Shown: positions 8,416-62,820, counted from the stretch's first letter. The stretch: DNA of 64,000 nucleotides from Patescibacteria group bacterium (GCA_018826905.1 JAHJYC010000004.1:141717-205716), one strand, 5' to 3'. Translations and numbers: made by a program. Notes: generated by a model from the letters alone, not told the origin.

Positions 8416-8727
8416 TTATTTCTTTTCAAAGCGGTCTTTGTCTCGCCCGTAGCACTTGTTCATCTTCTGAGCAAACGCTTCATCAAGATCTATCTCGTGC
8501 TTGTTTGCAAGACACATAGCCGCAAATATCACATCCACAATCTCTTCTCCGAGCTCTTGCGCAGCTTCCTCAGCTTTCTTTTGCTTAGGGCCATACATGT
8601 GATTCACGAGTCGCGCAACTTCCCCAACTTCTTCGGTGAGAGCAGCAAGCTGGGCAAGCGCTGGCCAATAGGGATCCTTAAACCCCTGCGCCCAGTCATC
8701 TATCTGTTTCTGGGCGTCTTTGAGCAT
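8416..8727 (-). CDS. MazG-like nucleoside triphosphate pyrophosphohydrolase domain protein.
   Basis: 103-aa all-alpha protein. LTEEVGEVARLV...EELGEEIVDVIFAAMCLAN matches the MazG/HisE EExxE-type motif arrangement. Confidence 0.5.
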   Translation of the reverse strand: MLKDAQKQIDDWAQGFKDPYWPALAQLAALTEEVGEVARLVNHMYGPKQKKAEEAAQELGEEIVDVIFAAMCLANKHEIDLDEAFAQKMNKCYGRDKDRFEKK

Positions 8728-8731
8728 GGAG

Positions 8732-9292
8732 CTAGAAGGCGACTTTTACGGGCTCGCGTGCAGCTTCTTCCCCTTCTGCAAGTTCAAACAAACTCATCTG
8801 CTTGAAACTGAACATGCCAGCAATAACATTTCCTGGGAACTGCTCTAGTGCTGTGTTGAGTGTCTGCACGGTAGTGTTGTAGAAGCGGCGAGAGGCCATA
8901 ATCTTATTCTCCGTGTCAGACAATTCACGCTGCAGTTCCAAGAAGTTAGTGTTTGCTTTAAGGTCTGGATAGCTCTCAGATACAGCAAAGAGGGACTTGA
9001 GTGCTCCGGTAAGCATATTCTCAGCAGCTGCGTGCTGTTCAACTGTTCCTGCGTTCATTGCTGCAGTACGCGCTTCAGTTACCTGAGCAAGCGTAGTACT
9101 TTCATGCGCAGCGTATCCCTTAACCGTCTCAATAAGGTTAGGGATGAGGTCATAGCGGCGCTTCATCTGCACCTCAATATCAGACCACGCTTCCTTAGCG
9201 CGATTACGCAGACTAATAAAGCCGTTATATGAGAGCACTACCCACAAAACAACAAGGGCGAGTACACCGAGCGCGATATAAAGAATAGTCAT
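8732..9292 (-). CDS. LemA family protein.
   Basis: An N-terminal TM helix followed by the LemA core (YNGFISLRNRAKEAWSDIEVQMKRRYDLIPNLIETVKGYAAHE...). The start is placed at the internal Met (MTILY...); the ORF-track start at 9328 would add 12 poorly conserved residues. Confidence 0.75.
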   Translation of the reverse strand: MTILYIALGVLALVVLWVVLSYNGFISLRNRAKEAWSDIEVQMKRRYDLIPNLIETVKGYAAHESTTLAQVTEARTAAMNAGTVEQHAAAENMLTGALKSLFAVSESYPDLKANTNFLELQRELSDTENKIMASRRFYNTTVQTLNTALEQFPGNVIAGMFSFKQMSLFELAEGEEAAREPVKVAF

Positions 9293-9383
9293 ATACGTAC
9301 ATTGTAAGGTGCAGAAAAATGTATGCAAGTGGTTTGCAGAGCCACTGCCTTAGGTGTAGGGTCAGGTGCGAGGAGGAGAGAAT

Positions 9384-9542
9384 ATGCACATTAATCTGGA
9401 TGGGGTTGCAGACCACTTGGCTGACAAGGTTCTGGCGGCTGTCCCTGCGATCTGCTACACAGCGATTGCGGCGGTAATTGTGATCGGAGCCCTGGAAGCT
9501 TTCCTGCGGCACATAGACAGCACCAAGAGCAACAACAAGTAG
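9384..9542 (+). CDS. Small hypothetical membrane protein of 52 aa (MHINLDGVADHLADKVLAAVPAICYTAIAAVIVIGALEAFLRHIDSTKSNNK). It is too short to appear in the ORF track.
   Basis: A strong Shine-Dalgarno sequence AGGAGG sits 7 nt upstream of the ATG (9371-9376). There is one predicted TM helix, and an intrinsic terminator follows at 9562-9597. Confidence 0.4.
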   Translation: MHINLDGVADHLADKVLAAVPAICYTAIAAVIVIGALEAFLRHIDSTKSNNK

Positions 9543-9561
9543 TCGCCGCCCGAATCACAAA

Positions 9562-9597
9562 CGCCCCAGTCCTTATTTGGACCAGGGCGTTTTTTCT
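9562..9597. terminator. Intrinsic terminator hairpin (CGCCCCAGUCC-UUAUUU-GGACCAGGGCG followed by UUUUUU), probably bidirectional for the small plus-strand ORF and for groEL.
   Basis: A GC-rich stem followed by a T6 run on the plus strand, lying 14 nt downstream of the groEL stop when read on the minus strand. Confidence 0.5.
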
Positions 9598-9610
9598 TGT
9601 GTGTAGGCTT

Positions 9611-11263
<1,653 letters not shown>

Positions 11264-18730: not shown

Positions 18731-19411
18731 TTATTTTGCCTTAGGCCATCGCAGTGCTGCCTTAGGCCATAGCTTCGTTAAAGGATGCTCCTCACACGCA
18801 TGAGGGAGCGCAGGACATACATAGCGGCCGTACAGAACAAGTCCATTATTTACGTACTTCCAGTCTTTCTTCGGAATGAGTACCTCTAGGTCCTTAGATA
18901 TCTTAGTGAGTTCTGTATTATCCGTAAGATCAAAACGAAGAGCGAATCTACGTACATGGGTGTCTGTGGGAATACCTTCCCAAACACTAAACAGCTCCCC
19001 CAGCACTACATGTGCAGTTTTATATGCAACACCTGGCAAGAGAATTAACTCCCTTTCTGTCTGCGGTACCTCACCATTAAATTGATCGCGTATCATTTGC
19101 GCCGCAGAGACGATGTAGCGTGCCTTGGACTGATGATACGTTATGGACGAGGTTTCATTTGAAAAGACCGCGACAGACGCAGTAGCGAAATCATCAACTG
19201 TCTTGTACTTTTTCCAAAGCGTCTCTGTAACGGCATTTACTTTCTTATCTGTACACTGCGCTGACAATATAACTGCAGCTACAAATTGAAATGGAGTATC
19301 GTACGCAAGTTCACTCTTAGGCTCTGGGTACGAACGCCTTAGATAGCGAACTATCTCCTGTGCTCTCTTCTTTCGTTCTTCTTTGTGTACGTCTCTGAAA
19401 AGTTCATCCAT
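18731..19411 (-). CDS. Endonuclease III-like HhH-GPD DNA glycosylase with a degenerate Fe-S site.
   Basis: FQFVAAVILSAQCTDKKVNAV...LPGVAYKTAHVVL...PTDTHVRRFALRF matches the Nth pattern. The C-terminal region has only two Cys (VCPALPHAC) instead of the four Fe-S ligands. Confidence 0.6.
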   Translation of the reverse strand: MDELFRDVHKEERKKRAQEIVRYLRRSYPEPKSELAYDTPFQFVAAVILSAQCTDKKVNAVTETLWKKYKTVDDFATASVAVFSNETSSITYHQSKARYIVSAAQMIRDQFNGEVPQTERELILLPGVAYKTAHVVLGELFSVWEGIPTDTHVRRFALRFDLTDNTELTKISKDLEVLIPKKDWKYVNNGLVLYGRYVCPALPHACEEHPLTKLWPKAALRWPKAK

Positions 19412-37200: not shown

Positions 37201-37309
37201 TATGTTTGGACTTGCGTTCTCTATGGTGCTCACACTTATCCTCATTCCTGTCTTGTACCATCGCTGGCCAGGGAAAGAGATACGAGAACAGTTTAAGAAC
37301 GAGATATAA
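34208..37309 (+). CDS. RND efflux transporter permease (AcrB/AcrD/AcrF family).
   Basis: 1033 aa with 12 TM helices in a 1+5 / 1+5 arrangement and two large periplasmic loops, characteristic of AcrB. It lies 5 nt downstream of the adaptor gene. Confidence 0.85.
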   Translation: MTSFWTFFIQKNHFTALLAGVLILAGIVAVTSIPKESSPEVQIPVGIITTVLPGASAEDVERLITDKLEDKVLGVERVSKVTSTSGSGVSSITVEFDANADIDKSIQLLKDEVDKAVPELPAEAEDPRVTDVNFADQPILIISIAGDLAPAELTQLGEEVQETIERVPGVSSVALSGVREREVQVIVEQAKLRQYGLSVSDVTNAIRASGVASPAGSITISNIQYDIRLEAGLTKTEEVGDIALKGPGGAVLRVRDVARVVDGLSDATTFSRVSVDGSPSAPALTLSVFKSRGGNILATGSDVKKTLEELSEGPLSGTETVISYDAADDIAHDLTELTRVGLETVVLVMIMLFLTLGWRESLVAAASIPLSFLIAFIGLAASGNTINFISLFSLILAIGILVDSGIVVVEAIHTRLAKTGDKKAAAIAAIKEYAWPLVAGTFTTVAVFIPLFFLSGIVGKFIASIPFTVIFVLLASIFVALGLVPLLAVYALRPSTGKLAERQEKYNELAQAWYERFLRGILGNRKRENQFIWLMGGLFILALALPAVGAVKVAFFPGEDSGFVYVEIEKPQGTDLSDTDLSVREVEELLYTDSRIESFVSEVGAGSAFGGSGISGSKAANITVNFKDSNKQTSSEIVEELRRDLTSVTSAKITVSEPAGGPPTSAPVQVTFVGEDLASLEEALRMGERVLSEIPDVTNISTSMKDDGAEFVVRLDTAKAVQLGVSPLTVADTLRTALYGAKATDIRTGTDDIEVRMKVDLNQSYKDPSETTHTTIESVQALSIPGSQGPVPLATIATISYEPANAVIRHEDGSRTGTLTSDVTKNGNALAAVSEFQKRIKNAELPEGVTMKIGGESEDVNQSFAEMGLALLAGAALMLAILVLEFNSFRHSLYLLAIIPLSLIGVLAGLMITGSPLSFPSMLGVIALAGVIINHGIILMDSMARIGKSSTDASLTDVVVEASVSRFRPILLTTITTVVGMIPLSFASALWGPLAFSIMFGLAFSMVLTLILIPVLYHRWPGKEIREQFKNEI

Positions 37310-49626: not shown

Positions 49627-50112
49627 CTACTGAATACTACCTACAAGACCTGTGAGCGTAGGGCTACCACTCCACTTCTTAATCAGATTGCCTTCAGCAT
49701 CTACCTGAACAAGTGTGTGCTGAGTTGTTACTCCATATTTCTTCTTAAGCTCTGTCTCTGTATCATAATCAAGCTTTAAGATACTCACGTTTGCAGGTAT
49801 TGCCTCTAGATTGTTCTCAATGTCCGCATTAAGTCCTCTACATGAAGGACACCACGTTGCATGAAAGAAGAGGACAACATCTCCCTCTTTAGCTCGTGCT
49901 AGCTTTTCAGGAGCGTATGCTTCGTATAACCCAGTCTTCATCATGTCCTCTCCTTTTTCCATTCCCTCCTCCGTCGACATATCCTTCTCACCTGTCTGAC
50001 TCGTTTCATCTTTCACGCTCACATCAGCACTCTTGTTCATAGATGCGTATGCAAATCCAGCAATCGCAATGAGCGCGACAACTGCAATGCTAATCCCTGC
50101 GGTTTTATTCAT
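49627..50112 (-). CDS. Membrane-anchored thioredoxin-like protein (TlpA/ResA-like), the likely reductant partner of the Msr fusion.
   Basis: An N-terminal TM helix and a WCPSC active site (FFHATWCPSCRGL). It sits 3 nt upstream of the CcdA-MsrAB gene on the same strand. Confidence 0.75.
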   Translation of the reverse strand: MNKTAGISIAVVALIAIAGFAYASMNKSADVSVKDETSQTGEKDMSTEEGMEKGEDMMKTGLYEAYAPEKLARAKEGDVVLFFHATWCPSCRGLNADIENNLEAIPANVSILKLDYDTETELKKKYGVTTQHTLVQVDAEGNLIKKWSGSPTLTGLVGSIQ

Positions 50113-50159: not shown

Positions 50160-50201
50160 CACTGAGCCAGATGTAAAGTGTACTTTACATCTGGCTCAGT
50201 G
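50160..50201. repeat. 42-nt near-perfect palindrome CACTGAGCCAGATGTAAAGT-gt-ACTTTACATCTGGCTCAGTG.
   Basis: 20-bp perfect arms. It lies between the XRE/membrane-protein operon stop and the trx-msrAB operon start, and no U tract follows in either orientation. Confidence 0.6.
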
Positions 50202-50856: not shown

Positions 50857-51348
50857 TTAGGTAGAGGCCTTTCGTGCTGTATCAATAGCAGCAACGTCAA
50901 TCTTTTGCATGGTCATCATTGCTGTAAAGGCGCGCTCTGCCTCATCTCCTCCTGCAATCAGCGCATCCGTTAGAGTGCGCGGCGTAATCTGCCATGACAC
51001 TCCCCAGCGATCCTTGCACCATCCACATGCGCTTTCTTTTCCTCCGTTTCCTACAATTGCATTCCAGTAGCGATCTGTTTCCTCCTGATCGTCTGTTGCG
51101 ATTTGGAAAGAGAATGCTTCGCTTTGTTTAAATATGGGACCTCCATTCAAACCAACACAGGGAATTCCGCAGACCGTAAACTCAACCGTTAACACATCAC
51201 CCTTCTTTCCGCCTGGAAAATCAGCTGGTGCAGTGAAGACAGTGCCTACTCTGCTATCTGGGAATGTAGCGGCGTAAAAGGTGGCAGCGTCCAGTGCATC
51301 CTTTTCAAACCAGAGACAAATGGTGTTCTTAGGTGTCATATAGTTCAT
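50857..51348 (-). CDS. VOC/glyoxalase-superfamily protein of the PhnB-like family (3-demethylubiquinone-9 3-methyltransferase domain).
   Basis: ICLWFEKDALDAATFY...GDVLTVEFTVCGIPCVGLNGGP...ESACGWCKDRWGVSWQI matches the PhnB-like family (PF06983). Confidence 0.65.
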   Translation of the reverse strand: MNYMTPKNTICLWFEKDALDAATFYAATFPDSRVGTVFTAPADFPGGKKGDVLTVEFTVCGIPCVGLNGGPIFKQSEAFSFQIATDDQEETDRYWNAIVGNGGKESACGWCKDRWGVSWQITPRTLTDALIAGGDEAERAFTAMMTMQKIDVAAIDTARKAST

Positions 51349-51579
51349 TTGTTTAGAGCTCTTGTATACCTAGATTATTGCATGTAAATCTATGCTCTAG
51401 GAAATGAGCTGGCAAGAACCGCTCAGTTATAGGTCCTTCTATACTAAACTAGGCTGCTGGCCGTCTGGGGCGGTATCCGAACTCTTCTTACCGGGCCAGT
51501 TCCTCAATTGAACGAGTAGAGTGATTGAAAATGGCTTCCTTCTGATTATATTAAGATTTTTGCTCATTAATCTACGTTC

Positions 51580-52209
51580 TTAAACAGGCAGAAAGCGAGT
51601 TGCACCATTTTCAACTATCAAGACCTCTCCGTCTCTTAGTTTCTTACATTCATAAGGAAGTGCTTTCATTTGCTCTTCGCCTTCAGGCTGTAGGTGGCGA
51701 TACTTCTCAGTACCCCAATGAGGCCATACGAAATAGTCCATAAGACCAAGGCCTTCAAATATAATTGAAGGTGCTTTATTGGGATCATCCATCAGTTCGA
51801 TGGGGTGCATTGACGGTCCTGCAACGACGATACCCGCACTCCATCCGCCATATACTATTCCTTCTTCAAGCAGGTCTTTAATAATCCTATCGAATCCGCT
51901 TGTTCTCATTACATAACGCAACCAAAACGAATTTCCGCCTGCGCACCAGACGAGCTGGCAGGTTCGTAGTTCTGCAGCTAATTCCTCCCCATTCGCTACA
52001 TATTCCCGTAAATCAACCTCAACCGGTTCAAAGCCTAAGGAGTCAAAGAGTTTAGAGAGATTCTCACCGCGCTCTTTTGCTTTTTCTTCTGGGTATGGAT
52101 CTTGAGCATTGTTTATGAGAGCAACTCTGGGCTTCTCGACTCCATTCCTCAAAAGTCCTTTCAGCAAGTCAGCGTGCGGCACACCCTCAGAGCTAAGGAA
52201 GAGCTTCAT
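51580..52209 (-). CDS. Peptidase S51 (dipeptidase E-like) family protein.
   Basis: LVWCAGGNSFWLR...GIVYGGWSAGIVVAGPS matches the S51 core with the catalytic Ser (GGNSF ... GWSAG). Confidence 0.55.
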   Translation of the reverse strand: MKLFLSSEGVPHADLLKGLLRNGVEKPRVALINNAQDPYPEEKAKERGENLSKLFDSLGFEPVEVDLREYVANGEELAAELRTCQLVWCAGGNSFWLRYVMRTSGFDRIIKDLLEEGIVYGGWSAGIVVAGPSMHPIELMDDPNKAPSIIFEGLGLMDYFVWPHWGTEKYRHLQPEGEEQMKALPYECKKLRDGEVLIVENGATRFLPV

Positions 52210-53144
52210 ACTACTTTGTACTGATCTTCTCCAGTCTCAAGAATATTCAGGAGCGACTTAGTAGCTGTATCACTTGTGAGCTTAAGTTCAGTTGAAGTAT
52301 TAAAAGCGTTTGACCCATTGAACGAATACCAGACTCCAAGTGGGAGGCTTTTAAACTCCTCGTTCTTAGCAGGATTGTCAGAAGCCACACGGATACGACT
52401 GGCCTTGAGTTCTTTGAGAAGTGCGTCTTCGTTAATGATTCCGTGATGCATGAATGATACGAGGAGTGCGCCATCTTTCACCAAACCAAGTTCGCGTTCA
52501 CTGATAAAATCCTTACCTGCATCCTTAGAGACACAAAGAAAAAGAACGTCGCTTTCTGCTAGGAGGTTATCGAGAGTCTTGTGATTAAGAGCTACGTCCG
52601 CATGATCGTGTTTGCTGGAGTAGGAAATAGAAGCAGGGCGGAACGGCACCAGAATCTCGGCGATATGCATTCCAATACGACCCAAGCCAATGATCCCAAT
52701 ATTCTGCCCTTCAATTCCCTTAGTCGTCATAAACTTCTTTTCTCCCATTCGCCCAAGTTCGAAGAAGCCACGATTCATTGCTATTGCCGAACCGACAGCC
52801 CATTCCGCAACAGCATGAGTAGGAGCGTCTGGGGTGTTCGTTATTGCAATACCTTTCTTTGTCGCATACTCCCAAGCTGGAATGAGATCCTTGTAGCCTA
52901 TACCAGTAAAGGAAATGACCTTGAGTTCATCTCCTGCGTCGATAATATCCTCGTCAACGTGTTCGACACCCCCAAGAATATAGCCAACCTTCCCTTTAAT
53001 TGCAGAGATCAATTCTTCCTTGGAAGGCTCAGACTTATCTATTCGCTCAATCTCATATCCTGCAGCATGGATCTGCTCCTCGTGTTCTGGGAAGATAAAC
53101 AGGCTATCGGTGATAAGAATTTTACCCTTCATTACTAAAATCAT
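52206..53144 (-). CDS. D-isomer-specific 2-hydroxyacid dehydrogenase family (NAD-binding) protein.
   Basis: The Rossmann motif GIIGLGRIGMHIAEIL and a catalytic region with His and Arg in a C-terminal (D-2HADH) arrangement. The start is chosen at the internal Met MILVMKGKIL; the ORF-track start at 53183 adds 13 aa. Confidence 0.7.
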   Translation of the reverse strand: MILVMKGKILITDSLFIFPEHEEQIHAAGYEIERIDKSEPSKEELISAIKGKVGYILGGVEHVDEDIIDAGDELKVISFTGIGYKDLIPAWEYATKKGIAITNTPDAPTHAVAEWAVGSAIAMNRGFFELGRMGEKKFMTTKGIEGQNIGIIGLGRIGMHIAEILVPFRPASISYSSKHDHADVALNHKTLDNLLAESDVLFLCVSKDAGKDFISERELGLVKDGALLVSFMHHGIINEDALLKELKASRIRVASDNPAKNEEFKSLPLGVWYSFNGSNAFNTSTELKLTSDTATKSLLNILETGEDQYKVV

Positions 53145-53528
53145 ACCAGAAGTCCTGACATTCAATTCCCCTACCTGTAGCATCCCCTATTTGAAGGCTG
53201 GAATGGGCTGCGATGTTCGGTCTGGTACCAGAGCGACCAAGCTTCTAGGCCACCGTGTACCACACCACGACCTCACTCCCCGACCCCAATAGGTCGCCTT
53301 GGCACTAGATTGATCAGGAGTATATTTGGGGATTATTTATGGGAAGTTTGTGGGATAGAAACGGCTATCTTTCCACCATATAAACGCACCTTTCGAAAAG
53401 GTGATACGGCCTAAAACAAAGATATTTTGCGAGAAAATGAATTTTATAGTGGTAAAGGCGGCTAAGGATAACCCCAAACGACCCCACTTCAAATCATTAA
53501 GATAATCCACACCCCTTCCCCATACATA

Positions 53529-54356
53529 TCAAGGGCGCTTCCACATAACTTCCATCTCTTTTTCGGACTTTTTAGGATGCGTGCTGAAAAGAAGTGTAGA
53601 ACCTTCCTTCGGGAAGTCTTCAATACGAACGACATCCGGTTCTAGGTCAAAATGCTCTGTAACTACACGAAGAGATTCCAGAACTGACACAAACACCTCC
53701 TTAGTAGCAACAGTCTTAAGAAAGTTTATATATGGACGATCCTGTAGGAAGTCTCGGTTCCCAAACTGAGCATGGGTGAACCCGGAGAGTCGTGAGTAAA
53801 GTGGGGCATGGGTGTCTTTGAGATCGAGCTCTGAAAATATCTCGCTTATACTCTTGCCGTCCCAGTGATGCCTTCTCTTTCCTGCTGGCTTATGACTCTT
53901 TAGTTCCTCCTGCATTTTCCTGAGCAACTTGGCCTGCAATTCGGATATATTCGGTAGACTTTCCGTTCGCATCACATACTCACGTAGTGGATAGTGATAA
54001 AAATTCCGCGCTCGCTGCTCCGTGTCCTTTTGATAGATGTATTGGAGATTTATGGAGTTCTCAAGTAGAGACCGTGCAAGTGTGAGGCATGGAAGGAATC
54101 TGCCTTTCTTGCGTAGAGTGATAATAGACTCGTATATGTCTATATTCTCCTCTACCAGGAAACGCGTAACTGCAAAAAGCTCTGGAGTGGTTTTCCTTTC
54201 CAGCTGACTTAGGTTTGAAAGATATCTGTGCAGGAATACTACGATCTCTCGCAGGTCCTTTATCTCTCCACTTTCCCAGAATCTAAGCATATACAGGGAG
54301 TATATGCTTCCTGGCCAGGATGACGAATTAGGGATTAAATTCACTCGCACCAACAT
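53529..54356 (-). CDS. Hypothetical alpha-helical protein carrying a HEPN-like Rx5H motif (YSRLSGFTHAQ); a candidate Abi/HEPN RNase-like protein.
   Basis: 275 aa in the AT-richer region flanking the integrative island. Its start overlaps the upstream membrane-protein gene by 29 nt, so the two are likely translationally coupled. Confidence 0.35.
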   Translation of the reverse strand: MLVRVNLIPNSSSWPGSIYSLYMLRFWESGEIKDLREIVVFLHRYLSNLSQLERKTTPELFAVTRFLVEENIDIYESIITLRKKGRFLPCLTLARSLLENSINLQYIYQKDTEQRARNFYHYPLREYVMRTESLPNISELQAKLLRKMQEELKSHKPAGKRRHHWDGKSISEIFSELDLKDTHAPLYSRLSGFTHAQFGNRDFLQDRPYINFLKTVATKEVFVSVLESLRVVTEHFDLEPDVVRIEDFPKEGSTLLFSTHPKKSEKEMEVMWKRP

Positions 54357-55005
54357 ATTTACCTACGACAGCACTCGACTTGGAGGCTGCTGGGAAGAAA
54401 GACAGTGTATTCCGATACAGCATGTTCTCTAGTTCGCCGTCGAAAGACGCGATGTAGTGCCGCTCAAGCAATGCTGTTTCCTCAGCAGTACGTGCTCTTC
54501 CAAGAGAAAGAGTGCCGTATTGGCGATACGCTAGATTGAGCGCATTCGCATCGTCAAAGAAATTGAGTGAGACTTTCGTGCCATGCGCTTTGGTCAGATC
54601 ACGAACCCATCCCGTAACATTATTCTTGAACGAAGCATCTGATAGCTCCACTGGGTCTATGAGCAGATAGAAGACAATTCCTCCATCAGATCGCTCTTTA
54701 GAAGTTTGTACGATTTGGGGTGCTGTAGGCACCAGAGACTCACTTACTGACTGGACTTGTGCAATTGATTCAGTTGTTGCTGGGGTTTCGGCCTCAACCT
54801 CTATAGAAGGCTCAACGGTCGTAATCACAGGAGGCTTAGAATCACTCGGAGGAGCCGTGGCACCAAAAAGAATAAAGAGAACCACTAGCGTAGCTCCAAA
54901 ACCAAGTCCGATGACTTTTCTAGACTGCTTAAAGACTGAAGGCTTAATCAAACCAACGACAAGTCCGACAAGAGACACGAAAAACAGAAAGAGAAAAATA
55001 CCCAT
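54328..55005 (-). CDS. Hypothetical membrane-anchored protein (N-terminal TM helix, Pro/Thr-rich linker, globular C-terminal domain).
   Basis: 225-aa ORF. The left copy of the island direct repeat lies within codons ~25-31. Confidence 0.4.
   Translation of the reverse strand: MGIFLFLFFVSLVGLVVGLIKPSVFKQSRKVIGLGFGATLVVLFILFGATAPPSDSKPPVITTVEPSIEVEAETPATTESIAQVQSVSESLVPTAPQIVQTSKERSDGGIVFYLLIDPVELSDASFKNNVTGWVRDLTKAHGTKVSLNFFDDANALNLAYRQYGTLSLGRARTAEETALLERHYIASFDGELENMLYRNTLSFFPAASKSSAVVGKYVGASEFNP
54908..54929 (+). repeat. Left direct repeat CCGATGACTTTTCTAGACTGCT (attL-like).
   Basis: It matches 60931-60951 at 20/21 positions with a single 1-nt indel; 16 nt are identical (ACTTTTCTAGACTGCT). 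Confidence 0.6.
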
Positions 55006-55290
55006 ACGTAGTTCCTTTAAGGCGAGTAAGCCTAGAAGCGGAATTGTGCGGGTAGCACAAAACCCGCCACCAGGAGCCCGAAGGCCTATAGAAGTTTCCC
55101 TCTATAACGTAGGACACGCCCTGATGACGGGTTTTCTATGTCCTACGATTTTCGACCATGCTCGGGATTCCTCCGCAGGTTTAGGTCATTCTTATTCAGT
55201 TGTTGCCCAGGCTTAGCGCCGTACTAGAACATTAGCGTACAAACGAGAAAGTGTGTAGGTCAGAGCCATAAGCGAGTATAATTTGACTCA

Positions 55291-57597
55291 ATGCCCGATT
55301 ACAATTTCCAAACCCTTAACGATAGAGAGTTTGAGAGGTTAACTCGTGATTTATTGCAAAAGGAAACAGGTCTTACGTTCGAGAGTTTTAAACCTGGGCG
55401 TGATGGGGGTATAGATTTACGCCATTCCTCTCCAACAGAAGATGTGACTACTATTGTTCAGGCAAAGCATCGAGTCCGAGCCAGCTATAAGGATCTTTTG
55501 TATGACCTCAGCAAGACTGAGCTACCAAAAGTTAAGAAGCTGGAGCCCTCACGTTACATATTAGTAACTAGTGTTGAATTTAATCCCGCCCAAAAGAAAG
55601 AACTGAAGAATCTTTTTGCTCCCTATGTTCTTACGACTGGAGATATCCTTGGTAGAGATGACTTAAACGGACTGCTCGGAAAATTTTCTGAAATTGAAGA
55701 GAAGCATCCAAAACTATGGTTATCGAGTATTCCTATACTTAATAAGATTGTAAATAACGGTATAAAGGGCCGTTCTGATTTTACAGACGAAGTGATTAGA
55801 AAGAACGTAAGCCTATATGTAGCCAATGAAACATATGCCGAGGCTCTTGAAATTCTTAACGAAGAACAATTTCTTGTAATAGTTGGGGAACCGGGAATCG
55901 GAAAGACGGTTCTTGCAAAAATGCTTATTTATCAGTTGCTTGGAAACGACTACAGACTCGTGACTGTAACAGAAAAGATCTCCGAAGCAGAAGATTTGTG
56001 GGAACCTGAACAGAAACAAGTGTTTTATTTCGATGATTTTCTTGGAGCCAACTACTTAGAAATAGCTCAGTATCATAACGGTGATTCAGCCCTAGTGAAC
56101 TTTATAGCCCGAATAAAATTAGATCCTCTTAAACGTCTTATGCTGACGAGCAGGACTGCAGTTTTGAACCAAGCGGCTCAGGTTTATCCGCGTCTAGAAG
56201 CACCCGGGCTTGAGCTGGCGCGGCACGAAGTAAAAATTGAGGACTACTCAAAGCTAGACAAGGCTCAGATTTTGTATAACCACCTTTACTTTCTAGGTTT
56301 GGGAGAAGATTACAAGCAAAAGGTAAAAGAAGACAAGAATTACTGGAAAATTATAAAGCACAAAAACTATAATCCGCGCCTGATTGAGTTCATTTCTGAC
56401 CCACTGAGACTGAAGGAGGTACCGCCTGAAGATTATATGGGTTTTATACAGGAGAGACTGGATAATCCTGCGGACATATGGAAGCAAGCATATTTACATC
56501 AGACGGACGACTACTGTAAATTCTTGATTCAATCGCTATTTTCTCTTGGCGAAAAAGTTCCCGAACGAATTCTAAAGAGAGCATTTAATGCGCGTTTAGA
56601 CTACGAAATAGAGCACAATGGCTTTCGAAGAGAAGCAGATGTTTATGCATTGCGTCTCAAGCATTTAATGGGCGGATTCTTAAAGGCAGTCAGGCACGGG
56701 GAGAATGTTTATCTCAGTTTCTTTAACCCTTCTATTACAGACTTCTTGTTGCACTACTTAAGTGAGAATAAAGATGAGAAGTGGCGAATACTTAACTCTG
56801 TGATTTTTACATCACAACTTACAAATCGCTTTATAACCAGTAAAGATTCATTGCTCGCGTTCGTCGAGGACGAAATATCGCCACTTGAAGCACTTATATC
56901 GAGAAGAGCTGACGACCTGGTAGACCCAGAAGGCGGATCCAGAGATATAGAGCTACTACACTTTTATTACTTTGCCTTCCCTGTTGATCTTATTGATACT
57001 AAATCTGCACCTATTTTAGAACGCTTGGATCTAGATGAAGCTTTACCATCACAGTTTGATGCATTGCTATCAACTCTTGATGCACTTCAAACATACGACG
57101 AGTCAATTCGGATAGTTAAGAGTCGCTTTCGTGAAATTATAAATTATCTTTTTAGTTCTGATACCGGCGGGAGAAAACTTAGTTCTATCAAGAAGCTTTT
57201 CAAGGCCTACGATGAAAGTTATGAGGAATATATTGCTGACGAGAATAGCCGAACTATTGTTGAATCAGCATTAACCCGACACTGGGGCGAGCGAATTAGC
57301 GATATAGAGGCCGGGCAAGATTCAGACGTTGCGGAATTTGGCACTTCTTCTGAGATTGAGACTTTCATAGGAGAAATTCAAGAGGACGGGAGGCAATATA
57401 ATAGGAGTTTTGGGTTCGCTGAACTGCGAATAATGGAAAGTTTCGAAGATATAGATTATGACGAGATTGCAAGATCCTCAAGAGAGCGTGCACAAATAGA
57501 AGACTATATGTCCGACTACCATGCAGAGGAATATTATTCTGAGCGTTCTGAACCTCAAAGAAACGAGAATGCGGAAATAGACGAATTATTTCAATAA
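55291..57597 (+). CDS. Mrr-like PD-(D/E)xK restriction-endonuclease domain fused to a STAND-like P-loop NTPase and a helical C-terminal region (Avs/AVAST-like architecture).
   Basis: The N-terminus FERLTRDLLQKETGLTFESFKPGRDGGIDLRHS...IVQAKH gives a D...(Q)xK Mrr_cat-like pattern. Walker A is GEPGIGKT and Walker B is VFYFDDFLG (hhhhDD, STAND type). A C-terminal ~400-aa alpha-helical region ends in an acidic, Tyr-rich tail. Confidence 0.55.
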   Translation: MPDYNFQTLNDREFERLTRDLLQKETGLTFESFKPGRDGGIDLRHSSPTEDVTTIVQAKHRVRASYKDLLYDLSKTELPKVKKLEPSRYILVTSVEFNPAQKKELKNLFAPYVLTTGDILGRDDLNGLLGKFSEIEEKHPKLWLSSIPILNKIVNNGIKGRSDFTDEVIRKNVSLYVANETYAEALEILNEEQFLVIVGEPGIGKTVLAKMLIYQLLGNDYRLVTVTEKISEAEDLWEPEQKQVFYFDDFLGANYLEIAQYHNGDSALVNFIARIKLDPLKRLMLTSRTAVLNQAAQVYPRLEAPGLELARHEVKIEDYSKLDKAQILYNHLYFLGLGEDYKQKVKEDKNYWKIIKHKNYNPRLIEFISDPLRLKEVPPEDYMGFIQERLDNPADIWKQAYLHQTDDYCKFLIQSLFSLGEKVPERILKRAFNARLDYEIEHNGFRREADVYALRLKHLMGGFLKAVRHGENVYLSFFNPSITDFLLHYLSENKDEKWRILNSVIFTSQLTNRFITSKDSLLAFVEDEISPLEALISRRADDLVDPEGGSRDIELLHFYYFAFPVDLIDTKSAPILERLDLDEALPSQFDALLSTLDALQTYDESIRIVKSRFREIINYLFSSDTGGRKLSSIKKLFKAYDESYEEYIADENSRTIVESALTRHWGERISDIEAGQDSDVAEFGTSSEIETFIGEIQEDGRQYNRSFGFAELRIMESFEDIDYDEIARSSRERAQIEDYMSDYHAEEYYSERSEPQRNENAEIDELFQ

Positions 57598-57658
57598 CCA
57601 TTTATCCCCTTCCCGGTTTACTAGACTTCCCGGCGGTATCCAGTATGTTCGTGTCTGT

Positions 57659-58987
57659 ATGGAGACAACAATGCTCTATGGAGCTCAGACAGCCGCCCCG
57701 GCACACCAAGCAGCGGTTACCGTCAGATACTGCCTGTATGCCCGTAAATCGAGCGAGGCAGAGGAGCGACAGGCGCTTTCGATAGATTCTCAGGTTAACG
57801 AGATGTTGGCCCTAGCCCAGCGAGAGGGACTGACAATTGTCGACATGTACCGAGAATCTCACTCGGCCAAGGATTGCGGGCAACGGCCAGTATTCAACCA
57901 ACTCCTCACAGACATACGCGAGGGTAAGTTTGACGGAATCCTCGCATGGCACCCTGACCGACTCTCTCGCAACGCCGGGGACCTCGGAGCTATCGTTGAC
58001 CTCTTTGATCAGAAGAAGCTTCTTGAGATACGTACCCATAGTCAGCGATTCACGAATAACCCGAATGAGAAATTCCTTCTCATGATTCTCGGCTCTCAAG
58101 CCAAGCTCGAGAATGACAACAAGAGCATTAATGTGAAGCGCGGACTCAAGACTAAATGCGAGCTTGGGCTTTGGCCTTCAGTAGCGCCAACTGGATACCT
58201 CAACTCCAAGAATAAGGACCAGAAAGGAGTCGTATTCGTGGATCCGGACCGAGCACCAATCATCAAAGAACTATTCAACAAAGTAGCCAATGAAGGATGG
58301 AGCGGACGGAAGATCTACCGCTGGCTCAAAGATATAAAGTTCCTCACTCGCACCGGCAAGCCCCTTACACTCAGCAATGTCTACTGTATTCTCAACAATC
58401 ACTTCTATCACGGTTCATTTGAGTACCCAAAGAACAGCGGTCGGTGGTTCCTGGGCAAACATACTCCGCTCATATCCAAAGAGCTCTTTGATGATGTTCA
58501 GAAACAGCTCCATTTACAGATTAGAGCTCCTAATCGAAATAAGGAGTTCGCTTTCACCCGCCTTCTCTCATGTGGCACATGTGAATCTGGCGTAACAGCA
58601 CAGGAGAAGTTTAAGAGTTTGAAAGACGGATCGATCGCTAAATATATTTATTACGGATGTACGCGTGCGCGGAATATTAACTGTAAGGAGGGCTACATCG
58701 AGGAGAGGGTTCTCATCTCTCAATTAACTGTAATCATTGACCAAATCGACCTTGATCGCTCAGGTATTAAAAAGAAGCTTGAACTTGAGATTGAGCGTCA
58801 CAAGAAATTTCACTCAGGAATTATGGGCAAAACCGACGAAGAGTACTTCGCCAAAGATGCAGACATAAGAAATTACGCTAAGTACCTCCTTACCGAGGGT
58901 TCTATCTTTGAGAAGCGTGACTTACTCACCTGTCTGAAAAGCAAACTTCTTCTAAAGGAAAAGATAATATCTACAACCAGTACCTAG
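57659..58987 (+). CDS. Large serine recombinase (resolvase/invertase catalytic domain plus recombinase domain plus zinc-ribbon domain).
   Basis: The N-terminal resolvase motif YARKSS...Q...SIDSQ carries the catalytic Ser. The length of 442 aa and the Cys cluster CGTCESGVT...YYGCTRARNINC (zinc ribbon) are typical of LSR integrases. Confidence 0.8.
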   Translation: METTMLYGAQTAAPAHQAAVTVRYCLYARKSSEAEERQALSIDSQVNEMLALAQREGLTIVDMYRESHSAKDCGQRPVFNQLLTDIREGKFDGILAWHPDRLSRNAGDLGAIVDLFDQKKLLEIRTHSQRFTNNPNEKFLLMILGSQAKLENDNKSINVKRGLKTKCELGLWPSVAPTGYLNSKNKDQKGVVFVDPDRAPIIKELFNKVANEGWSGRKIYRWLKDIKFLTRTGKPLTLSNVYCILNNHFYHGSFEYPKNSGRWFLGKHTPLISKELFDDVQKQLHLQIRAPNRNKEFAFTRLLSCGTCESGVTAQEKFKSLKDGSIAKYIYYGCTRARNINCKEGYIEERVLISQLTVIIDQIDLDRSGIKKKLELEIERHKKFHSGIMGKTDEEYFAKDADIRNYAKYLLTEGSIFEKRDLLTCLKSKLLLKEKIISTTST

Positions 58988-58993
58988 GAATGA

Positions 58994-60850
58994 TTAGGAG
59001 AAATTAAATTCGTCTTCCTGGAGAGCCTGGTCGACGAAAGTAAAGATTTCTTCAAAAGCCGTTATCGTAGTTTTGCTTAAGTCATCTTTCTTAATCTGTT
59101 TTTTCTTTGCCTTTTCCAAGAACAGTTTTGCAAAGATGTTTTTTCGACTCTTTCCTATATATGAAACGTTATCTTTCTTTTGGGGCTTAGGAGCTAGAGC
59201 AAAGTTCTTTGAACCGCCCGCGATTGTTTGTATATCACTTATCGAAAATAGTTCTTCGATATCAGACACATCGAGGGTCTTAACTTTCTTTTCCGCTCGG
59301 GTCTTGTCTCCAGCAAAAATACCCTCCTTAAGATCATCGAACTTGGCTTGACCGACTGGCTCGCCATCAATTACCACACACCACTTCAAATTGTACCCAA
59401 TACAGATCCCTACAAGAGGGTTCAATTTACTCCCCAATGCCCCAACTCCAGGGATAAGAGCGTAGTCCAATTTCTTTCCAAGAACAATTGCCATTGCTTG
59501 CAAATGCATGTAATCACTTACACCTTCAAGAATTACATTTTTCTCTTTGAAGATGAGATTCTGGTGCGGTACGTCGCAGCCGATTGCGTAGTTAACAAGA
59601 GACATTGCCTCCTGCTTATTCTTAGAATTTCCAATTTGAGTCTTAAGGATATTCTCACAGAGTGTGCCTTGATCCTTATCGTTAAAAACAAGAGCCACAC
59701 GATAGATGGTCTCTAATGGAACTAGAGTCGGTGCATGCGTCGTGTAAAGTATCTGGTGACCGAATTTACCACTAATTTTCTCAAAGACTTTAAGGAGGTC
59801 TTTTTGAGCATTTATGTGAAGGCTTCTATCAGGTTCATCCACCAAAATTATGGCCTTCTTTTCTTTTAATGATTTTAGTGCCAACCAGAAAGATAGGAAC
59901 CAGATCATTCCCTGGCTGCGCATTCTAACTGGTAGTTCTTTCCCTTCTTTGGTCCTAACAGCAAAGTCGATATAGTTCTTTTCAACTTCATCCTCTTTCT
60001 CTTTTCTCTTTTCGATATTAAAAACCAACCCAAGTTTATCGTTCTCAATCCCGTGAAGTTTTTGAGAAAAGTCATTTTTCAGGTCGGCAGTAATATCAGA
60101 AATTCGTTTATTGGTTTCATCAAGGCGACGAATGGAAGGCGTCTCTGCAAGAGACTTGAAGGTAAAATCTGCATTCCCAGTAAGCTCCTGGAGACAAGCT
60201 TCCAACCATGTGACCGAAACCCAGCCATCTCCAGTTTCTTCCACCAGATCATCAATTGATATGAAATCTGGAAGCGTATCGCAAGTCCCTCCTTCAAAAA
60301 ATATAAACTCCGGAATGATGTTATCTACAATGAACTTTCCTACATCTGGGGTAAGGATAGAAGCGTCAAACTCTTCTTCATTTTCATCGGCATCTTCCTC
60401 AGCCTCTACCGATGCTGCACCGGTAGACTCGACCTCAAGGTTATTAATTAAGGCATTCTGAAAAGTTGTATCCAATGAGTAGTTCTTTCCATCAAAAGTA
60501 AGAGTAAAATTTGAAATACGGCTTATGGTATTTGGCTTAAATGCCACAACCTCCTTGAATATTTCCTCGTTCGCGAAATTCTCGATTTCATCTAGAATCG
60601 CAGGCTTATCATCAGCTGCCTCGAAAGAAAACTGACATGAGACAACTTGATCAAGCCCTGCTGGGGATTCATACGGGTAGGAGTCCCCATCAAACTCACC
60701 ATTATAAAAATCTCTCAGGGCCTCTAAGATGCTTGATTTCCCCGATTCATTCTGTCCGATCAGAGACAGAATATTGTCACTTTGACCCAAATCAACCTCT
60801 ACCCTAACGATAGATTTGTAGTTGTGAATCTCAACCTTATCTAGCTTCAT
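58994..60850 (-). CDS. OLD-family nuclease (N-terminal ABC-type ATPase plus C-terminal TOPRIM domain); a stand-alone Class-1-like gene.
   Basis: Walker A is GQNESGKSS. The Q-loop, signature and Walker B are present (AIILVDEPDRSLH), and a TOPRIM-like VILEGVSDYMHL...VVIDGE follows. There is no adjacent UvrD-like partner gene. Confidence 0.75.
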   Translation of the reverse strand: MKLDKVEIHNYKSIVRVEVDLGQSDNILSLIGQNESGKSSILEALRDFYNGEFDGDSYPYESPAGLDQVVSCQFSFEAADDKPAILDEIENFANEEIFKEVVAFKPNTISRISNFTLTFDGKNYSLDTTFQNALINNLEVESTGAASVEAEEDADENEEEFDASILTPDVGKFIVDNIIPEFIFFEGGTCDTLPDFISIDDLVEETGDGWVSVTWLEACLQELTGNADFTFKSLAETPSIRRLDETNKRISDITADLKNDFSQKLHGIENDKLGLVFNIEKRKEKEDEVEKNYIDFAVRTKEGKELPVRMRSQGMIWFLSFWLALKSLKEKKAIILVDEPDRSLHINAQKDLLKVFEKISGKFGHQILYTTHAPTLVPLETIYRVALVFNDKDQGTLCENILKTQIGNSKNKQEAMSLVNYAIGCDVPHQNLIFKEKNVILEGVSDYMHLQAMAIVLGKKLDYALIPGVGALGSKLNPLVGICIGYNLKWCVVIDGEPVGQAKFDDLKEGIFAGDKTRAEKKVKTLDVSDIEELFSISDIQTIAGGSKNFALAPKPQKKDNVSYIGKSRKNIFAKLFLEKAKKKQIKKDDLSKTTITAFEEIFTFVDQALQEDEFNFS

Positions 60851-60930
60851 GATGCCCTCATTTTACTACTGTCTGGTGGAAGTTCCACCCCGGACAGGGA
60901 TAGTGGCAATTAGGGACCCGTCTAGGTCCT

Positions 60931-60951
60931 TCGATACTTTTCTAGACTGCT
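60931..60951 (+). repeat. Right direct repeat TCGATACTTTTCTAGACTGCT (attR-like), abutting and overlapping the 3' end of tRNA-Gln by 2 nt.
   Basis: See the left repeat. It lies immediately 3' of the tRNA gene on the tRNA strand. Confidence 0.6.
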
Positions 60952-61020
60952 GCGGGACTAGGACTCGAACCTAGATAGACGGTACCAGAAACCGTAGTCC
61001 TACCATTAGACGATCCCGCA
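60950..61020 (-). tRNA. tRNA-Gln (anticodon CUG).
   Basis: The minus-strand sequence UGCGGGAUCGUCUAAUGGUAGGACUACGGUUUCUGGUACCGUCUAUCUAGGUUCGAGUCCUAGUCCCGCAG folds as a cloverleaf with a U1:A72 pair (typical of tRNA-Gln), an ACGGU/ACCGU anticodon stem, loop UUCUGGU, and a GGUUCGAGUCC T-arm. No CCA is encoded. Confidence 0.85.
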
Positions 61021-61517: not shown

Positions 61518-61600
61518 AGAACTAATGCATTAAAGGAATATACCAATAAGTATACCGCTTCTAGACTGCATGCTATGATTCTCCTGTACAACCGAATACG

Positions 61601-61750
61601 CAGTATCAAGAGTGCGGCGAGGGACCTGGCCCTTTGACCCGTCGGCAACCATTCCTAAAGGAAACGGTGCCCCCAGACCCCAACGCGGGAACGATGCCTC
61701 TGTAACGAAACATCTCCCGTAGTGGGAGATGTTTCGTTTCGTACCTTTAT
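61601..61750 (+). promoter_or_regulatory. SAM-I (S-box) riboswitch with an intrinsic terminator expression platform, sitting in the metK leader.
   Basis: Conserved core AUCAAGAGUGCGGCGAGGGACCUGGCCCUUUGACCCGUCGGCAACC ... GGUGCC ... P1 closing GUAUC/GAUGC. This is followed by the hairpin GAAACAUCUCCC-GUAG-UGGGAGAUGUUUC plus a U-rich tract, 17 nt before the metK ATG. Confidence 0.8.
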
Positions 61751-61767: not shown

Positions 61768-62820
61768 ATGTTTCATCTTCTTACGCATTACACGACCGAG
61801 AGCGTTACTGCAGGACACCCAGACAAAGTCTGCGACCAAATATCAGACGCCATCCTAGATGCCTGCCTCACCCAAGACCCAAATAGCCGTGTTGCTGTTG
61901 AAACCTTTGGGAGCCACGGCACACTCATGATTGGCGGCGAGGTTACCACAACAGCCTCTGTAGATTACGAAGCAATCGCACGCGAAGTGTATGCCTCTAT
62001 TGGCTACACAGAAGACCTAGAGGTGCTCTCACGCGTTGTAACGCAGTCCGGAGACATTGCTATGGGAGTAGACACAGGAGGCGCCGGAGACCAGGGAATT
62101 ATGTACGGCTACGCAACGAACGAGACTGATCAGTATCTTCCGTTAGGTGTTGTGCTCGCCCACGGACTCGCACGAAAACTAGAGGAGCTTCGCACGAGCG
62201 GGACACTCCCCTACCTGCGTCCAGACGGAAAGACTCAGGTAACCATAAAGAATGGAGAAGTAATCACCGGCCTCACTTCAACCCAACACACTGAAGAGAC
62301 TGAACTTGAAACAATCCGTGAGGATCTAACCAAGCACCTCTTCACACCAATCCTCGGAGACCTAAGTAACATAGAAATCCTCGTAAACCCAACAGGACGT
62401 TTCGTACAAGGCGGGTTTGAGGCAGACGCAGGTCTTACCGGTCGCAAGATAATGGTAGACACCTATGGAGGACTTATGCCACACGGCGGGGGCTGCTTCT
62501 CAGGAAAAGATGCAACAAAAGTAGACCGCTCTGCAGCCTATATGTGTCGCTTTGTAGCAAAGAACCTTGTTGCAAACGGACACGCAAAGAAAGCACTCGT
62601 CTCAGTTGCCTACGCTATTGGCCGTGTTGACCCAGTTATGGTTGAAGCATTTGATGAGAACGGAAAGAATCTCTCAGAGATTGTGAACACACACTTTGAC
62701 TTCCGTCCTCTTATGATTCGCGAGCGACTTGGACTCACCCGTCCTATATTCCGCGAGACTGCCGCATACGGACACTTCGGAGTTCAGGGCCGTCCCTGGG
62801 AAGAAATTATCTCTCTTTAG
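61768..62820 (+). CDS. metK: S-adenosylmethionine synthetase (methionine adenosyltransferase).
   Basis: The signature ESVTAGHPDKVCDQISDAILDA, GGGAFSGKD-like GGGCFSGKDATKVDRSAAY, and C-terminal AYGHFG. At 350 aa it is somewhat shorter than E. coli MetK. Confidence 0.92.
   Translation: MFHLLTHYTTESVTAGHPDKVCDQISDAILDACLTQDPNSRVAVETFGSHGTLMIGGEVTTTASVDYEAIAREVYASIGYTEDLEVLSRVVTQSGDIAMGVDTGGAGDQGIMYGYATNETDQYLPLGVVLAHGLARKLEELRTSGTLPYLRPDGKTQVTIKNGEVITGLTSTQHTEETELETIREDLTKHLFTPILGDLSNIEILVNPTGRFVQGGFEADAGLTGRKIMVDTYGGLMPHGGGCFSGKDATKVDRSAAYMCRFVAKNLVANGHAKKALVSVAYAIGRVDPVMVEAFDENGKNLSEIVNTHFDFRPLMIRERLGLTRPIFRETAAYGHFGVQGRPWEEIISL

Follow-up and report, generated by a model that had tools for sequence, protein, structure and literature searches.

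A compact island with a large serine recombinase at a tRNA-Gln gene of a Patescibacteria bacterium: likely ends, candidate defence genes and a LOOT RNA

Results

The 3' end of a tRNA-Gln(CUG) gene in a Patescibacteria group bacterium is probably the target of an island of ~7.7 kb (53207-60954), which would be mobilised by the large serine recombinase (LSR) that it encodes. The island was studied in a stretch of 64,000 nucleotides (GCA_018826905.1, JAHJYC010000004.1:141717-205716), referred to here as the window, and all coordinates are counted from its first letter. The parts of the island follow one another in the order distal block, DUF5677 gene, membrane-protein gene, LOOT RNA, PDC-S73 gene, LSR gene, OLD gene and arm, and a 6-nt GCTGCG repeat likely flanks the integrated form. 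The gene of the presumed integrase stands between the two junctions, and the tRNA-Gln is intact. A first-pass annotation of the window had already placed an integrative element around the LSR, at the 3' end of this tRNA and with anti-phage cargo, and this was borne out; the relatives of the island hold other defence systems in the same slots. The left edge of the island was found 1.7 kb beyond the repeat that had been used as its boundary. In the multi-locus comparisons the window's own island is designated W and the related loci or contigs bear L-numbers; the metagenome scan yielded 510 confirmed LSR relatives, and 80 loci were kept.

Ends of the island

The tRNA-Gln(CUG) gene is located on the minus strand at 60949/50-61020, as determined by ARAGORN, by the Rfam tRNA model (56.6 bits) and by the alignment of tRNA ends. 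Its 3' end reads GCTGCG on the plus strand (60949-60954), which makes up the copy of the 6-nt core nearer the tRNA. The element-side att arm (P arm, 60910-60948), likewise on the minus strand, adjoins the tRNA on its 3' side and was kept at this place in at least 10 close-clade loci. Read from the tRNA, the arm is AGTCTAGAAAAGTATCGAAGGACCTAGACGGGTCC (~36 nt), and the consensus of the close clade is AGTCTAG(AAAA/TTTA)GTATCGA(A/T)GGACCTAGA.GGGTC. In the clade of 60% LSR identity the arm is CACATGCTAAGTCAGGTGACTGAGACGCAT, with the consensus (A)CACATGCTAAGTCAGGTGAC(C/T)GAGACGCAT, and it stands next to tRNAs for Gln, Arg, Asn and Leu. The arms beside tRNAs for Ser, Lys, Tyr and Trp are more divergent. 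Since the members of an LSR clade have a conserved arm irrespective of tRNA and host, the arm tracks the recombinase and not the tRNA. Neither of the two clade arms, nor a close LSR, was present in 1.3 Mb of metK-anchored control loci, L010 included.

The opposite end is marked by a 91-nt block on the minus strand (53207-53297, the element-side arm P'), for which nhmmer matches were obtained in W, L090, L092, L093, L094 and L105. The block is 91-92 nt long across these six loci (GCGACCTAGACGGGTC ... (T)GGTACCAGACC.AACATCGCAGC) and ends with CGCAGC, and in the alignment conservation stops directly after this motif in 6/6 loci. The similarity between W and L090 ends exactly at 53207 and 60915. 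Past 53207 the host DNA carries a 2-hydroxyacid dehydrogenase gene, whose surroundings in relatives are those of an ordinary host gene. Over its last 23 nt the block is similar to the half of tRNA-Gln that comprises the T-loop and acceptor (14/23 by eye), and because these nucleotides do not co-vary with the acceptor stem of each host's tRNA, this tRNA-like end belongs to the element. In the distant clade the corresponding "far block" profile often matched near the tRNA rather than beyond LOOT, and the boundary in the window was placed without these blocks.

Common to both junctions is only (C)GCAGC, that is, GCTGCG on the plus strand at 53207-53212 and 60949-60954. A core of 6 nt is as short as the chemistry of serine recombinases predicts, which resolves an oddity of the first-pass annotation, where it was rightly doubted that such enzymes leave 20-nt repeats.

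A boundary at ~55240-55258, just upstream of LOOT, was also considered on the basis of the W/L090 homology break, the GC profile of L090 and a faint resemblance to the arm in inverted orientation. It was given up, as LOOT accompanies the LSR beside other tRNAs and the distal block is found further out.

The 16-nt repeat in the membrane-protein gene

The element had earlier been delimited by the direct repeats CCGATGACTTTTCTAGACTGCT (54908-54929) and TCGATACTTTTCTAGACTGCT (60931-60951), 16 nt of which are identical. Sequence lookup confirmed the pair: the exact 16-mer ACTTTTCTAGACTGCT occupies 54914-54929 and 60936-60951, and there are just these two copies within the window. The right copy had been placed exactly where the tRNA ends; it does adjoin the tRNA but overlaps its last 3 nt. 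It is composed of these 3 nt and the first 13 nt of the element-side arm, a division that follows because the conserved arm directly 3' of the tRNA tracks the LSR clade.

The left copy sits within the membrane-protein gene, which is itself part of the island. When the junction sequence (12 nt of tRNA and 40 nt of arm) was compared in ten close-clade loci, the longest second copy was 9-11 nt, so none of them repeats its tRNA flank beyond this length. The L090 ortholog of the membrane protein has no equivalent of the 16-mer and keeps the same N-terminus and reading frame, which speaks against the proposal that the insertion rebuilt the 5' end of this gene. Neither does a left boundary inside the gene agree with the facts that LOOT and the membrane gene accompany the recombinase also beside other tRNAs and that six loci have the 91-nt distal block beyond it, where similarity stops after CGCAGC.

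The chance of such a match within 64 kb had been put at 1e-5. This figure is far too low, as any 64-kb window of such composition should contain ~0.5 exact direct pairs of 16-mers by chance, and shuffled sequence gave 0.57. Only the location beside the tRNA makes the 16-mer unusual, the chance expectation for a 60-nt tRNA-flank query being ~7e-4. Chance matches to the arm score 28 in other coding sequence, against 35 for the 16-mer match. The comparison suggests that the 16-mer is not a junction. It would be a match, specific to this lineage, of the arm with part of the reading frame of the membrane gene that belongs to the island, and it may have arisen by chance (about 1e-3) or by conversion between arm and gene.

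Two further similarities of this kind were rejected. An arm-like match at 18883-18900 falls within an endonuclease III-like (nth-like) gene at 18.8 kb and is due to chance, and an extension of the 16-mer similarity into the T-arm of the tRNA, noticed by eye, was lost under stricter scoring.

Genes of the island

The recombinase and the two cargo genes were as first described, Pfam and PADLOC searches being in agreement. Cargo slot 2 holds a gene on the plus strand (55291-57597) for a 768-aa protein with an Mrr-type nuclease domain and an nSTAND3 NTPase domain (Mrr_cat and nSTAND3; PADLOC). The protein is a full-length match to PADLOC PDC-S73 (E 4.8e-187), and the comparison with the PDB gave no solved structural relative. 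In cargo slot 1 lies a gene on the minus strand (58994-60850) for a 618-aa protein that, according to Pfam, PADLOC and PDB comparisons, is probably an OLD-family ATPase-TOPRIM nuclease of a class 1-like, single-gene type. Its ATPase part is clear, Pfam having detected AAA_15 (1.6e-31) and AAA_21, together with OLD-like_TOPRIM at 1.1e-3 and 19.9 bits, below the 23.2 cut-off. It matches the PADLOC AriA/Old/GajA models, aligns over residues 319-538 with the Thermus OLD structure (PDB 6p74, E 4.6e-9) and also aligns with AriA. No UvrD/GajB-type partner gene was present near the OLD-like gene.

Between the two slots the LSR, the presumed integrase of 442 aa, is encoded on the plus strand (57659-58987). 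The Pfam domains Resolvase (PF00239, 2.1e-24) and Recombinase (PF07508, 1.2e-16) were identified in it; the zinc ribbon (Zn_ribbon_recom, PF13408) scored 1.4e-3 and 19.4 bits, below the 25.3 cut-off, and many close relatives of the LSR carry a precomputed PF13408 match. The closest solved structure is that of SPbeta SprA (9dxh, E 4.2e-13), in which the serine of the N-terminal YLRRS motif is aligned to Ser31 (YARKSS) of the LSR. The enzyme looks intact.

On the minus strand the membrane-protein gene (54328-55005) is found downstream of LOOT and contains the left repeat (54908-54929); its product has 225 aa and two N-terminal transmembrane (TM) helices. The DUF5677 gene (53529-54356, minus strand; Pfam 4.2e-22) also lies inside the element, an ortholog of 61% identity being found at the same place in L090, and the corresponding slot of L092 likewise holds DUF5677. 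Neither gene calls nor Pfam detected a capsid, terminase, portal or replication gene at 53207-60954.

The island had been described as AT-richer than its surroundings. This is correct for the two defence genes, with a guanine-cytosine (GC) content of 0.40-0.41 vs 0.469 for the window, but not for the LSR (0.473) or the DUF5677 and membrane-protein genes (0.45-0.47).

Comparison with related islands

Relatives whose LSR is 73-91% identical have a common backbone, which consists of the arm, a slot for variable defence genes, the LSR, a second such slot, LOOT with the membrane gene, and the distal block. In L090 the order is DUF1761, tRNA-Gln, a SEC-C-domain protein (809 aa), a 440-aa protein, LSR, three small open reading frames (ORFs), LOOT, membrane protein and DUF5677. 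This locus holds the single good homologue of the window's membrane protein (58% identical; 57.5% over the full length, N-terminus included), and the identities between W and L090 are 84% for the LSR, 62% for DUF1761 and 61% for DUF5677. At the DNA level the LSR is 76-81% identical, vs 70-73% for the host flanks. From the tRNA-side arm to just before LOOT the GC content of L090 is 0.34-0.51, vs 0.53-0.63 around this region.

The same host locus, DUF1761 followed by tRNA-Gln, is occupied in W, L090 and L198, with different cargo in the slots to the left and right of the LSR; that of L198 includes Shedu. The cargo of the relatives is overwhelmingly of anti-phage type. Elsewhere it consists of Avs2 in L093, of type I restriction-modification (R-M), Shedu and PDC-S06 in L094, of PDC-S06 in L104, of DRT UG13a in L105, of type II R-M in L112, of QatA/QatC in L124, and of HEC-06 with a methyltransferase in L092. 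Slot 1, the OLD position of the window, is filled in the relatives by Shedu, Avs2, PDC-S06, R-M or Qat. The 11 mapped relatives are 4-13 kb long and contain defence genes and the backbone. The cargo matches known or candidate anti-phage systems in PADLOC, its function being predicted from sequence only, and related elements with the same ends are found with differing hosts, sites and cargo.

LOOT RNA

A LOOT RNA (Rfam RF03000) was detected on the minus strand at 55030-55260, with the Rfam core at 55075-55187 and a score of 58.9 bits vs a gathering threshold of 46.4. In the alignment of 19 island copies, compensatory changes were seen in 28/36 pairs, and extensions beyond the Rfam model were conserved on both sides, TAAGCTAAG at the 5' end and GGTGGCGGGTTTTGTG at the 3' end. 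LOOT stands upstream of the LSR and on the opposite strand in 17 of the 38 loci whose upstream sequence extends to 4 kb or more; one more copy was obtained via Rfam.

The loci with LOOT are the window, L090, L092-L094, L104, L105, L108, L109, L111-L113, L122 and L124, together with L130, L134, L142, L143, L147, L154, L159, L164, L168, L170, L171, L178, L179 and L197. Its strand is opposite to that of the LSR in all of them except L113, L130 and L142. LOOT is present also in loci with Tyr, Ser, Arg or Lys tRNA, L130 being the sole Lys locus, and it was absent from the control loci (1.3 Mb). Since LOOT is found beside the LSR at several tRNA species and is absent from the controls, it travels with the recombinase and does not reflect the host synteny of tRNA-Gln; such a synteny had been considered and was rejected on these grounds, L010 also being without LOOT. 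Downstream of every LOOT copy (20 or more loci) comes an ORF with a hydrophobic TM helix at its N-terminus, and in the minimal units L147 and L171, LOOT, LSR and tRNA lie within ~1.7 kb. As LOOT and the membrane ORF accompany the LSR, the membrane gene that holds the left 16-mer lies inside the element.

LOOT thus appears to be tied to a family of serine recombinases and to a downstream membrane-protein ORF; the literature found on LOOT gives neither a function nor a genomic context. A similarity of the 5' part of LOOT to the tRNA end plus arm was dropped, as its score (24-30) was near the background (22-28).

The recombinase family and its tRNA targets

In the protein search the LSR family comprised at least 7999 clusters at E <= 1e-60, and among the matches listed the named sources were nearly always Patescibacteria, Paceibacterota or Minisyncoccia. 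The LSR of the window is 84% identical to that of L090, 90% to that of L198 and 91% to that of L197, its closest relative. In 27 of the 33 loci whose downstream sequence is 4 kb or longer, a tRNA on the minus strand was found downstream of the plus-oriented LSR, often just 80-300 nt past the LSR stop codon. This tRNA is mostly Gln (CUG or UUG); tRNAs for Arg, Asn, Ser, Tyr, Lys, Leu and Trp were found as well. This is a very large and apparently undescribed family of recombinases that target tRNA genes.

In the 60%-identity clade, the arm is present in 2-3 direct copies in L167, L118, L160, L124, L163, L156 and L136, and several of the multi-copy arms are preceded by a ~75-nt block that ends ...GTTCGAATCC....CCCAGCCA and represents the 3' half of a pseudo-tRNA. 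Such composite junctions, made of a pseudo-tRNA half and an arm, occur in 2-3 direct copies in several loci. This arrangement suggests tandem or serial integrations, with tiny remnant elements left beside the tRNA. At L096 (10032-10323) the tRNA-Gln is intact and its last 16 nt, GTCCAGGTCTCGCAGC, are duplicated ~175 nt downstream, directly before the LSR arm; the duplication would be a small second insertion or a scar at the same tRNA end. At L197 (12889-12960) the arm comes right after the ychF stop codon and is preceded by ~22 nt of tRNA-Gln-like 3' sequence. No full tRNA was detectable at this arm, and its target is presumably a tRNA remnant or pseudo-site.

Relatives of the LSR (47-60% identical) were found in 20 IMG/VR contigs. 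One of these, L178, has a Terminase_6C-like gene directly upstream of the LSR relative (8422-9936) and a LOOT copy at 5464-5580, and real phages of Patescibacteria may make use of the recombinase/LOOT module as well. L177, though called viral, is an R-M/Mrr island.

Search for an unoccupied site

Proteins identical to those of the flanks were found on contigs of Patescibacteria metagenome-assembled genomes (GCA_018826595.1 and others) and on Logan contigs, and all of these carry the island. A MetK-anchored genome scan returned one syntenic relative only, L010, which has different downstream genes. In this locus, the closest genome representative by MetK (82%), the tRNA-Gln stands beside the SAM riboswitch and metK, and there is neither an LSR nor an arm; it is the sole hint of an unoccupied site, coming from a distant relative. 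The contexts of the P0003 and P0004 proteins were uninformative on an empty site.

In L175 (2205-4035), which has the closest dehydrogenase relative (86%), an Exo_endo_phos gene is situated 181 nt upstream and no tRNA lies between. In the window metK, DUF1761, tRNA-Gln and the island come between these two gene families. The host synteny around the site is fluid.

Other features of the window

A solitary attP-like relic was detected on the minus strand at 51430-51490, 1.7 kb outside the island and between the host genes Peptidase_S51 and 3-dmu-9_3-mt. It is made up of a pseudo-tRNA 3' half, CAGCAG and a copy of the P arm, CCTAGTTTAGTATAGAAGGACCTA (P-arm profile, E 3.7e-9), it is comparable to the L197 junction, which has no full tRNA, and it is probably what remains of an integration at an earlier time. 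No Rfam match was obtained for 51300-53600, and neither this relic nor the distal block is a known RNA.

On the other side of the tRNA a SAM-I riboswitch (61600-61700, plus strand; RF00162, 46.6 bits vs gathering 44.4) lies upstream of metK (61768-62820), an arrangement also found in L010. A perfect inverted repeat of ~20 nt, CACTGAGCCAGATGTAAAG..., occupies 50160-50201 between a thioredoxin-like gene (49627-50112) and the next gene, and a shorter inverted pair is located at 37306/37328; both look like terminator hairpins. The window also contains a second, unrelated exact direct repeat of 20 nt, AGTCCTCCTCCTATAAGAAG (3646-3665 and 5749-5768), within two adjacent long minus-strand ORFs (2280-3962 and 3978-6404), which is probably a repeated coding motif of paralogous genes.

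Discussion

The best reading of these results is that the island anchors at tRNA 3' ends and carries exchangeable defence genes. In the circular form, the attP would consist of the 91-nt distal block, a mimic of the T-loop/acceptor part of tRNA-Gln that ends with CGCAGC, joined to the ~36-nt arm. The LSR would exchange strands within the short core (C)GCAGC at the discriminator end of the tRNA, by which the tRNA would be left intact and the island would be flanked by the 6-nt GCTGCG repeat (plus strand) and not by a long one. The reconstructed attP would comprise 53213-53297, the core and 60910-60948, with the junction ...GGTACCAGACCGAACATCGCAGC joined to AGTCTAGAAAAGTATCG, and the reconstructed attB would be the tRNA-Gln 3' end ...GTCCCGCAGC joined to CCATTCCAGCCTTCAAATAG (53206 downwards; 53170-53206). 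The proposed backbone includes the arm, the LSR, LOOT with the membrane-protein gene, DUF5677 and the distal block, and the two cargo slots flanking the LSR would be taken here by the OLD-type ATPase-TOPRIM nuclease and the Mrr-nSTAND3 protein (PDC-S73), both single-gene anti-phage candidates. The comparisons show the anatomy, the conservation of the junctions, the association with tRNAs across the family and the presence of defence cargo. Mobility, that is, integration and excision, as well as the exact crossover dinucleotide and the functions of cargo and LOOT, we infer from them.

Several observations weigh against this model. No empty attB, circular junction or whole-island presence/absence polymorphism was found in the contigs compared, and the 2-hydroxyacid dehydrogenase relatives (78-86% identical) have no tRNA-Gln nearby and show no empty site. 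The distal junction was placed by conservation alone, the 6-nt repeat has no statistical weight by itself, and the two arms show weak dyad symmetry. The LSR is found in the middle of the island and not at its end. The membrane and DUF5677 genes of W differ from those of L090 by as much as the DUF1761 host genes do, and they have a host-like GC content, which would also fit host genes. The relic at 51430-51490 and the multi-copy sites of the distant clade are not fully explained by it either.

Some of these points would suit a fixed chromosomal defence hotspot, in which the LSR, the arms and LOOT are long-resident (domesticated) anchors beside tRNAs and the whole island is immobile, while the cargo is swapped by homologous recombination between the anchors or by LSR-mediated cassette capture. 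The divergence of the membrane and DUF5677 genes at the rate of the host DUF1761 is the main argument for such a hotspot, which would agree as well with the missing empty site and polymorphism and with a central LSR having variable cargo on both sides between conserved anchors. We nevertheless consider it unlikely. A single LSR family with clade-specific arms is distributed over eight tRNA species and many hosts, serial tandem composite junctions exist, and the pseudo-tRNA end is borne by the element. Moreover, the LSR is better conserved than the flanking host DNA and in L090 differs from the host in GC content, relatives occur in contigs called viral, one of them with a terminase-like gene, and L010 is without the island at the syntenic tRNA.

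The viral contigs could in turn point to a degraded prophage or phage satellite, the remnant of a temperate Patescibacteria phage that used the LSR; the defence genes would then be its morons or satellite cargo. This is very improbable: against the LSR relatives (47-60%) in the 20 IMG/VR contigs and the Terminase_6C-like gene beside the LSR and LOOT copy of L178 stand the lack of any capsid, terminase, portal or replication gene between 53207 and 60954, the composition of the 11 mapped relatives (4-13 kb, defence genes and backbone) and the nature of the "viral" L177, an R-M/Mrr island. Least probable of all is an element of 54908-60951 with the 16-21-nt repeat as attL/attR and the left end in the membrane gene, whose 5' part would be supplied by the element together with the LOOT region, since the exact 16-mer, with its flanking ATCG/GAC similarity, direct orientation, contact with the tRNA 3' end and low chance expectation in the tRNA flank (~7e-4), and with the 15-18-nt shared cores of SCCmec and SPbeta as precedent, is mostly element arm and not tRNA, has no counterpart in the 10 related loci or in the L090 ortholog, is matched by ~0.5 chance pairs per window and by arm matches scoring 28 elsewhere in coding sequence, and is overrun by a backbone (LOOT, membrane gene, DUF5677, distal block) that continues beyond it.

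The model of a tRNA-anchored island can be extended to the whole group, although only as a tentative proposal which we hold to be somewhat doubtful. In Patescibacteria a very large family of LSR elements might serve as tRNA-anchored defence platforms, with a pseudo-tRNA attP, serial insertion leaving tandem composite junctions, cargo swapped in two slots, and LOOT with the membrane gene as a functional module. The role of this module would be, for example, that of a regulator of the membrane protein, of an abortive-infection or maintenance module, or of a controller of recombination.

By its domain content the LSR is an ordinary one, and the cargo is ordinary for defence islands. Like the LSR elements SPbeta (SprA), A118/LI, TP901-1 and SCCmec (Ccr), the island has a Resolvase domain with the aligned serine, a Recombinase domain and a putative zinc-ribbon region, a site-specific target, only a short shared core, and cargo unrelated to recombination. 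Unusual are the tRNA target, the attP with a pseudo-tRNA half, the LSR in mid-element between two cargo slots, and the link to LOOT. In contrast to the known LSR elements, the island targets a tRNA 3' end, its attP and the position of its LSR are as described, LOOT belongs to its backbone, its host is a member of the Patescibacteria, and no recombination directionality factor was identified for it. One survey called serine integrases (S-Ints) "not known for targeting tRNA genes"; in it 4.9% of S-Int elements were at t(m)RNA genes vs 44.5% for tyrosine integrases, only 14 of 297 candidate cases were found, and as these were unproven, proof was called for (PMC7192596).

In its integration at a tRNA 3' end, the preservation of the tRNA and its small size, the island is similar to P4-like satellites, phage-inducible chromosomal islands (PICIs) and pipolins, which use tyrosine integrases. 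It differs from them by its serine enzyme, by a 6-nt repeat in place of a long tRNA-derived one, and by the lack of replication, packaging or PolB genes. A further trait in common is a conserved backbone in which anti-phage systems replace one another at hotspots, and pipolins are said to be defence platforms. The domain orders of the cargo proteins match those of class 1 OLD (P2 Old, Thermus scotoductus OLD), with a TOPRIM domain that is putative since its match is below the Pfam cut-off, and of PDC-S73. Such single-gene systems are typical of defence islands, and the functions of both proteins are predicted ones. PDC-S73 is presumably a computational candidate system only. The window's LOOT agrees with its Rfam family, an orphan structured RNA, in scoring above the gathering threshold and in a structure supported by covariation, and is set apart from LOOT in the literature found by its association with LSR islands and with an ORF for a membrane protein downstream.

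The case also shows how a plausible 16-nt "att repeat" can mislead, as the boundaries were found only through family comparison. Serine integrases are prized as genome-engineering tools and are regarded as avoiding tRNA genes. Thousands of tRNA-adjacent LSRs with readable, clade-specific att arms would be a natural orthogonal set of integrases with predictable, conserved targets, and a test case for serine enzymes that preserve a tRNA. With a definite genetic context for LOOT, the function of this RNA becomes testable. The islands are also evidence that Patescibacteria, with their tiny genomes, retain anti-phage systems and exchange them by way of compact, recombinase-borne islands. If the proposal of tRNA-anchored defence platforms is true, it would provide the first biological context for LOOT and would make the targeting of tRNA genes by serine integrases the rule in one phylum.

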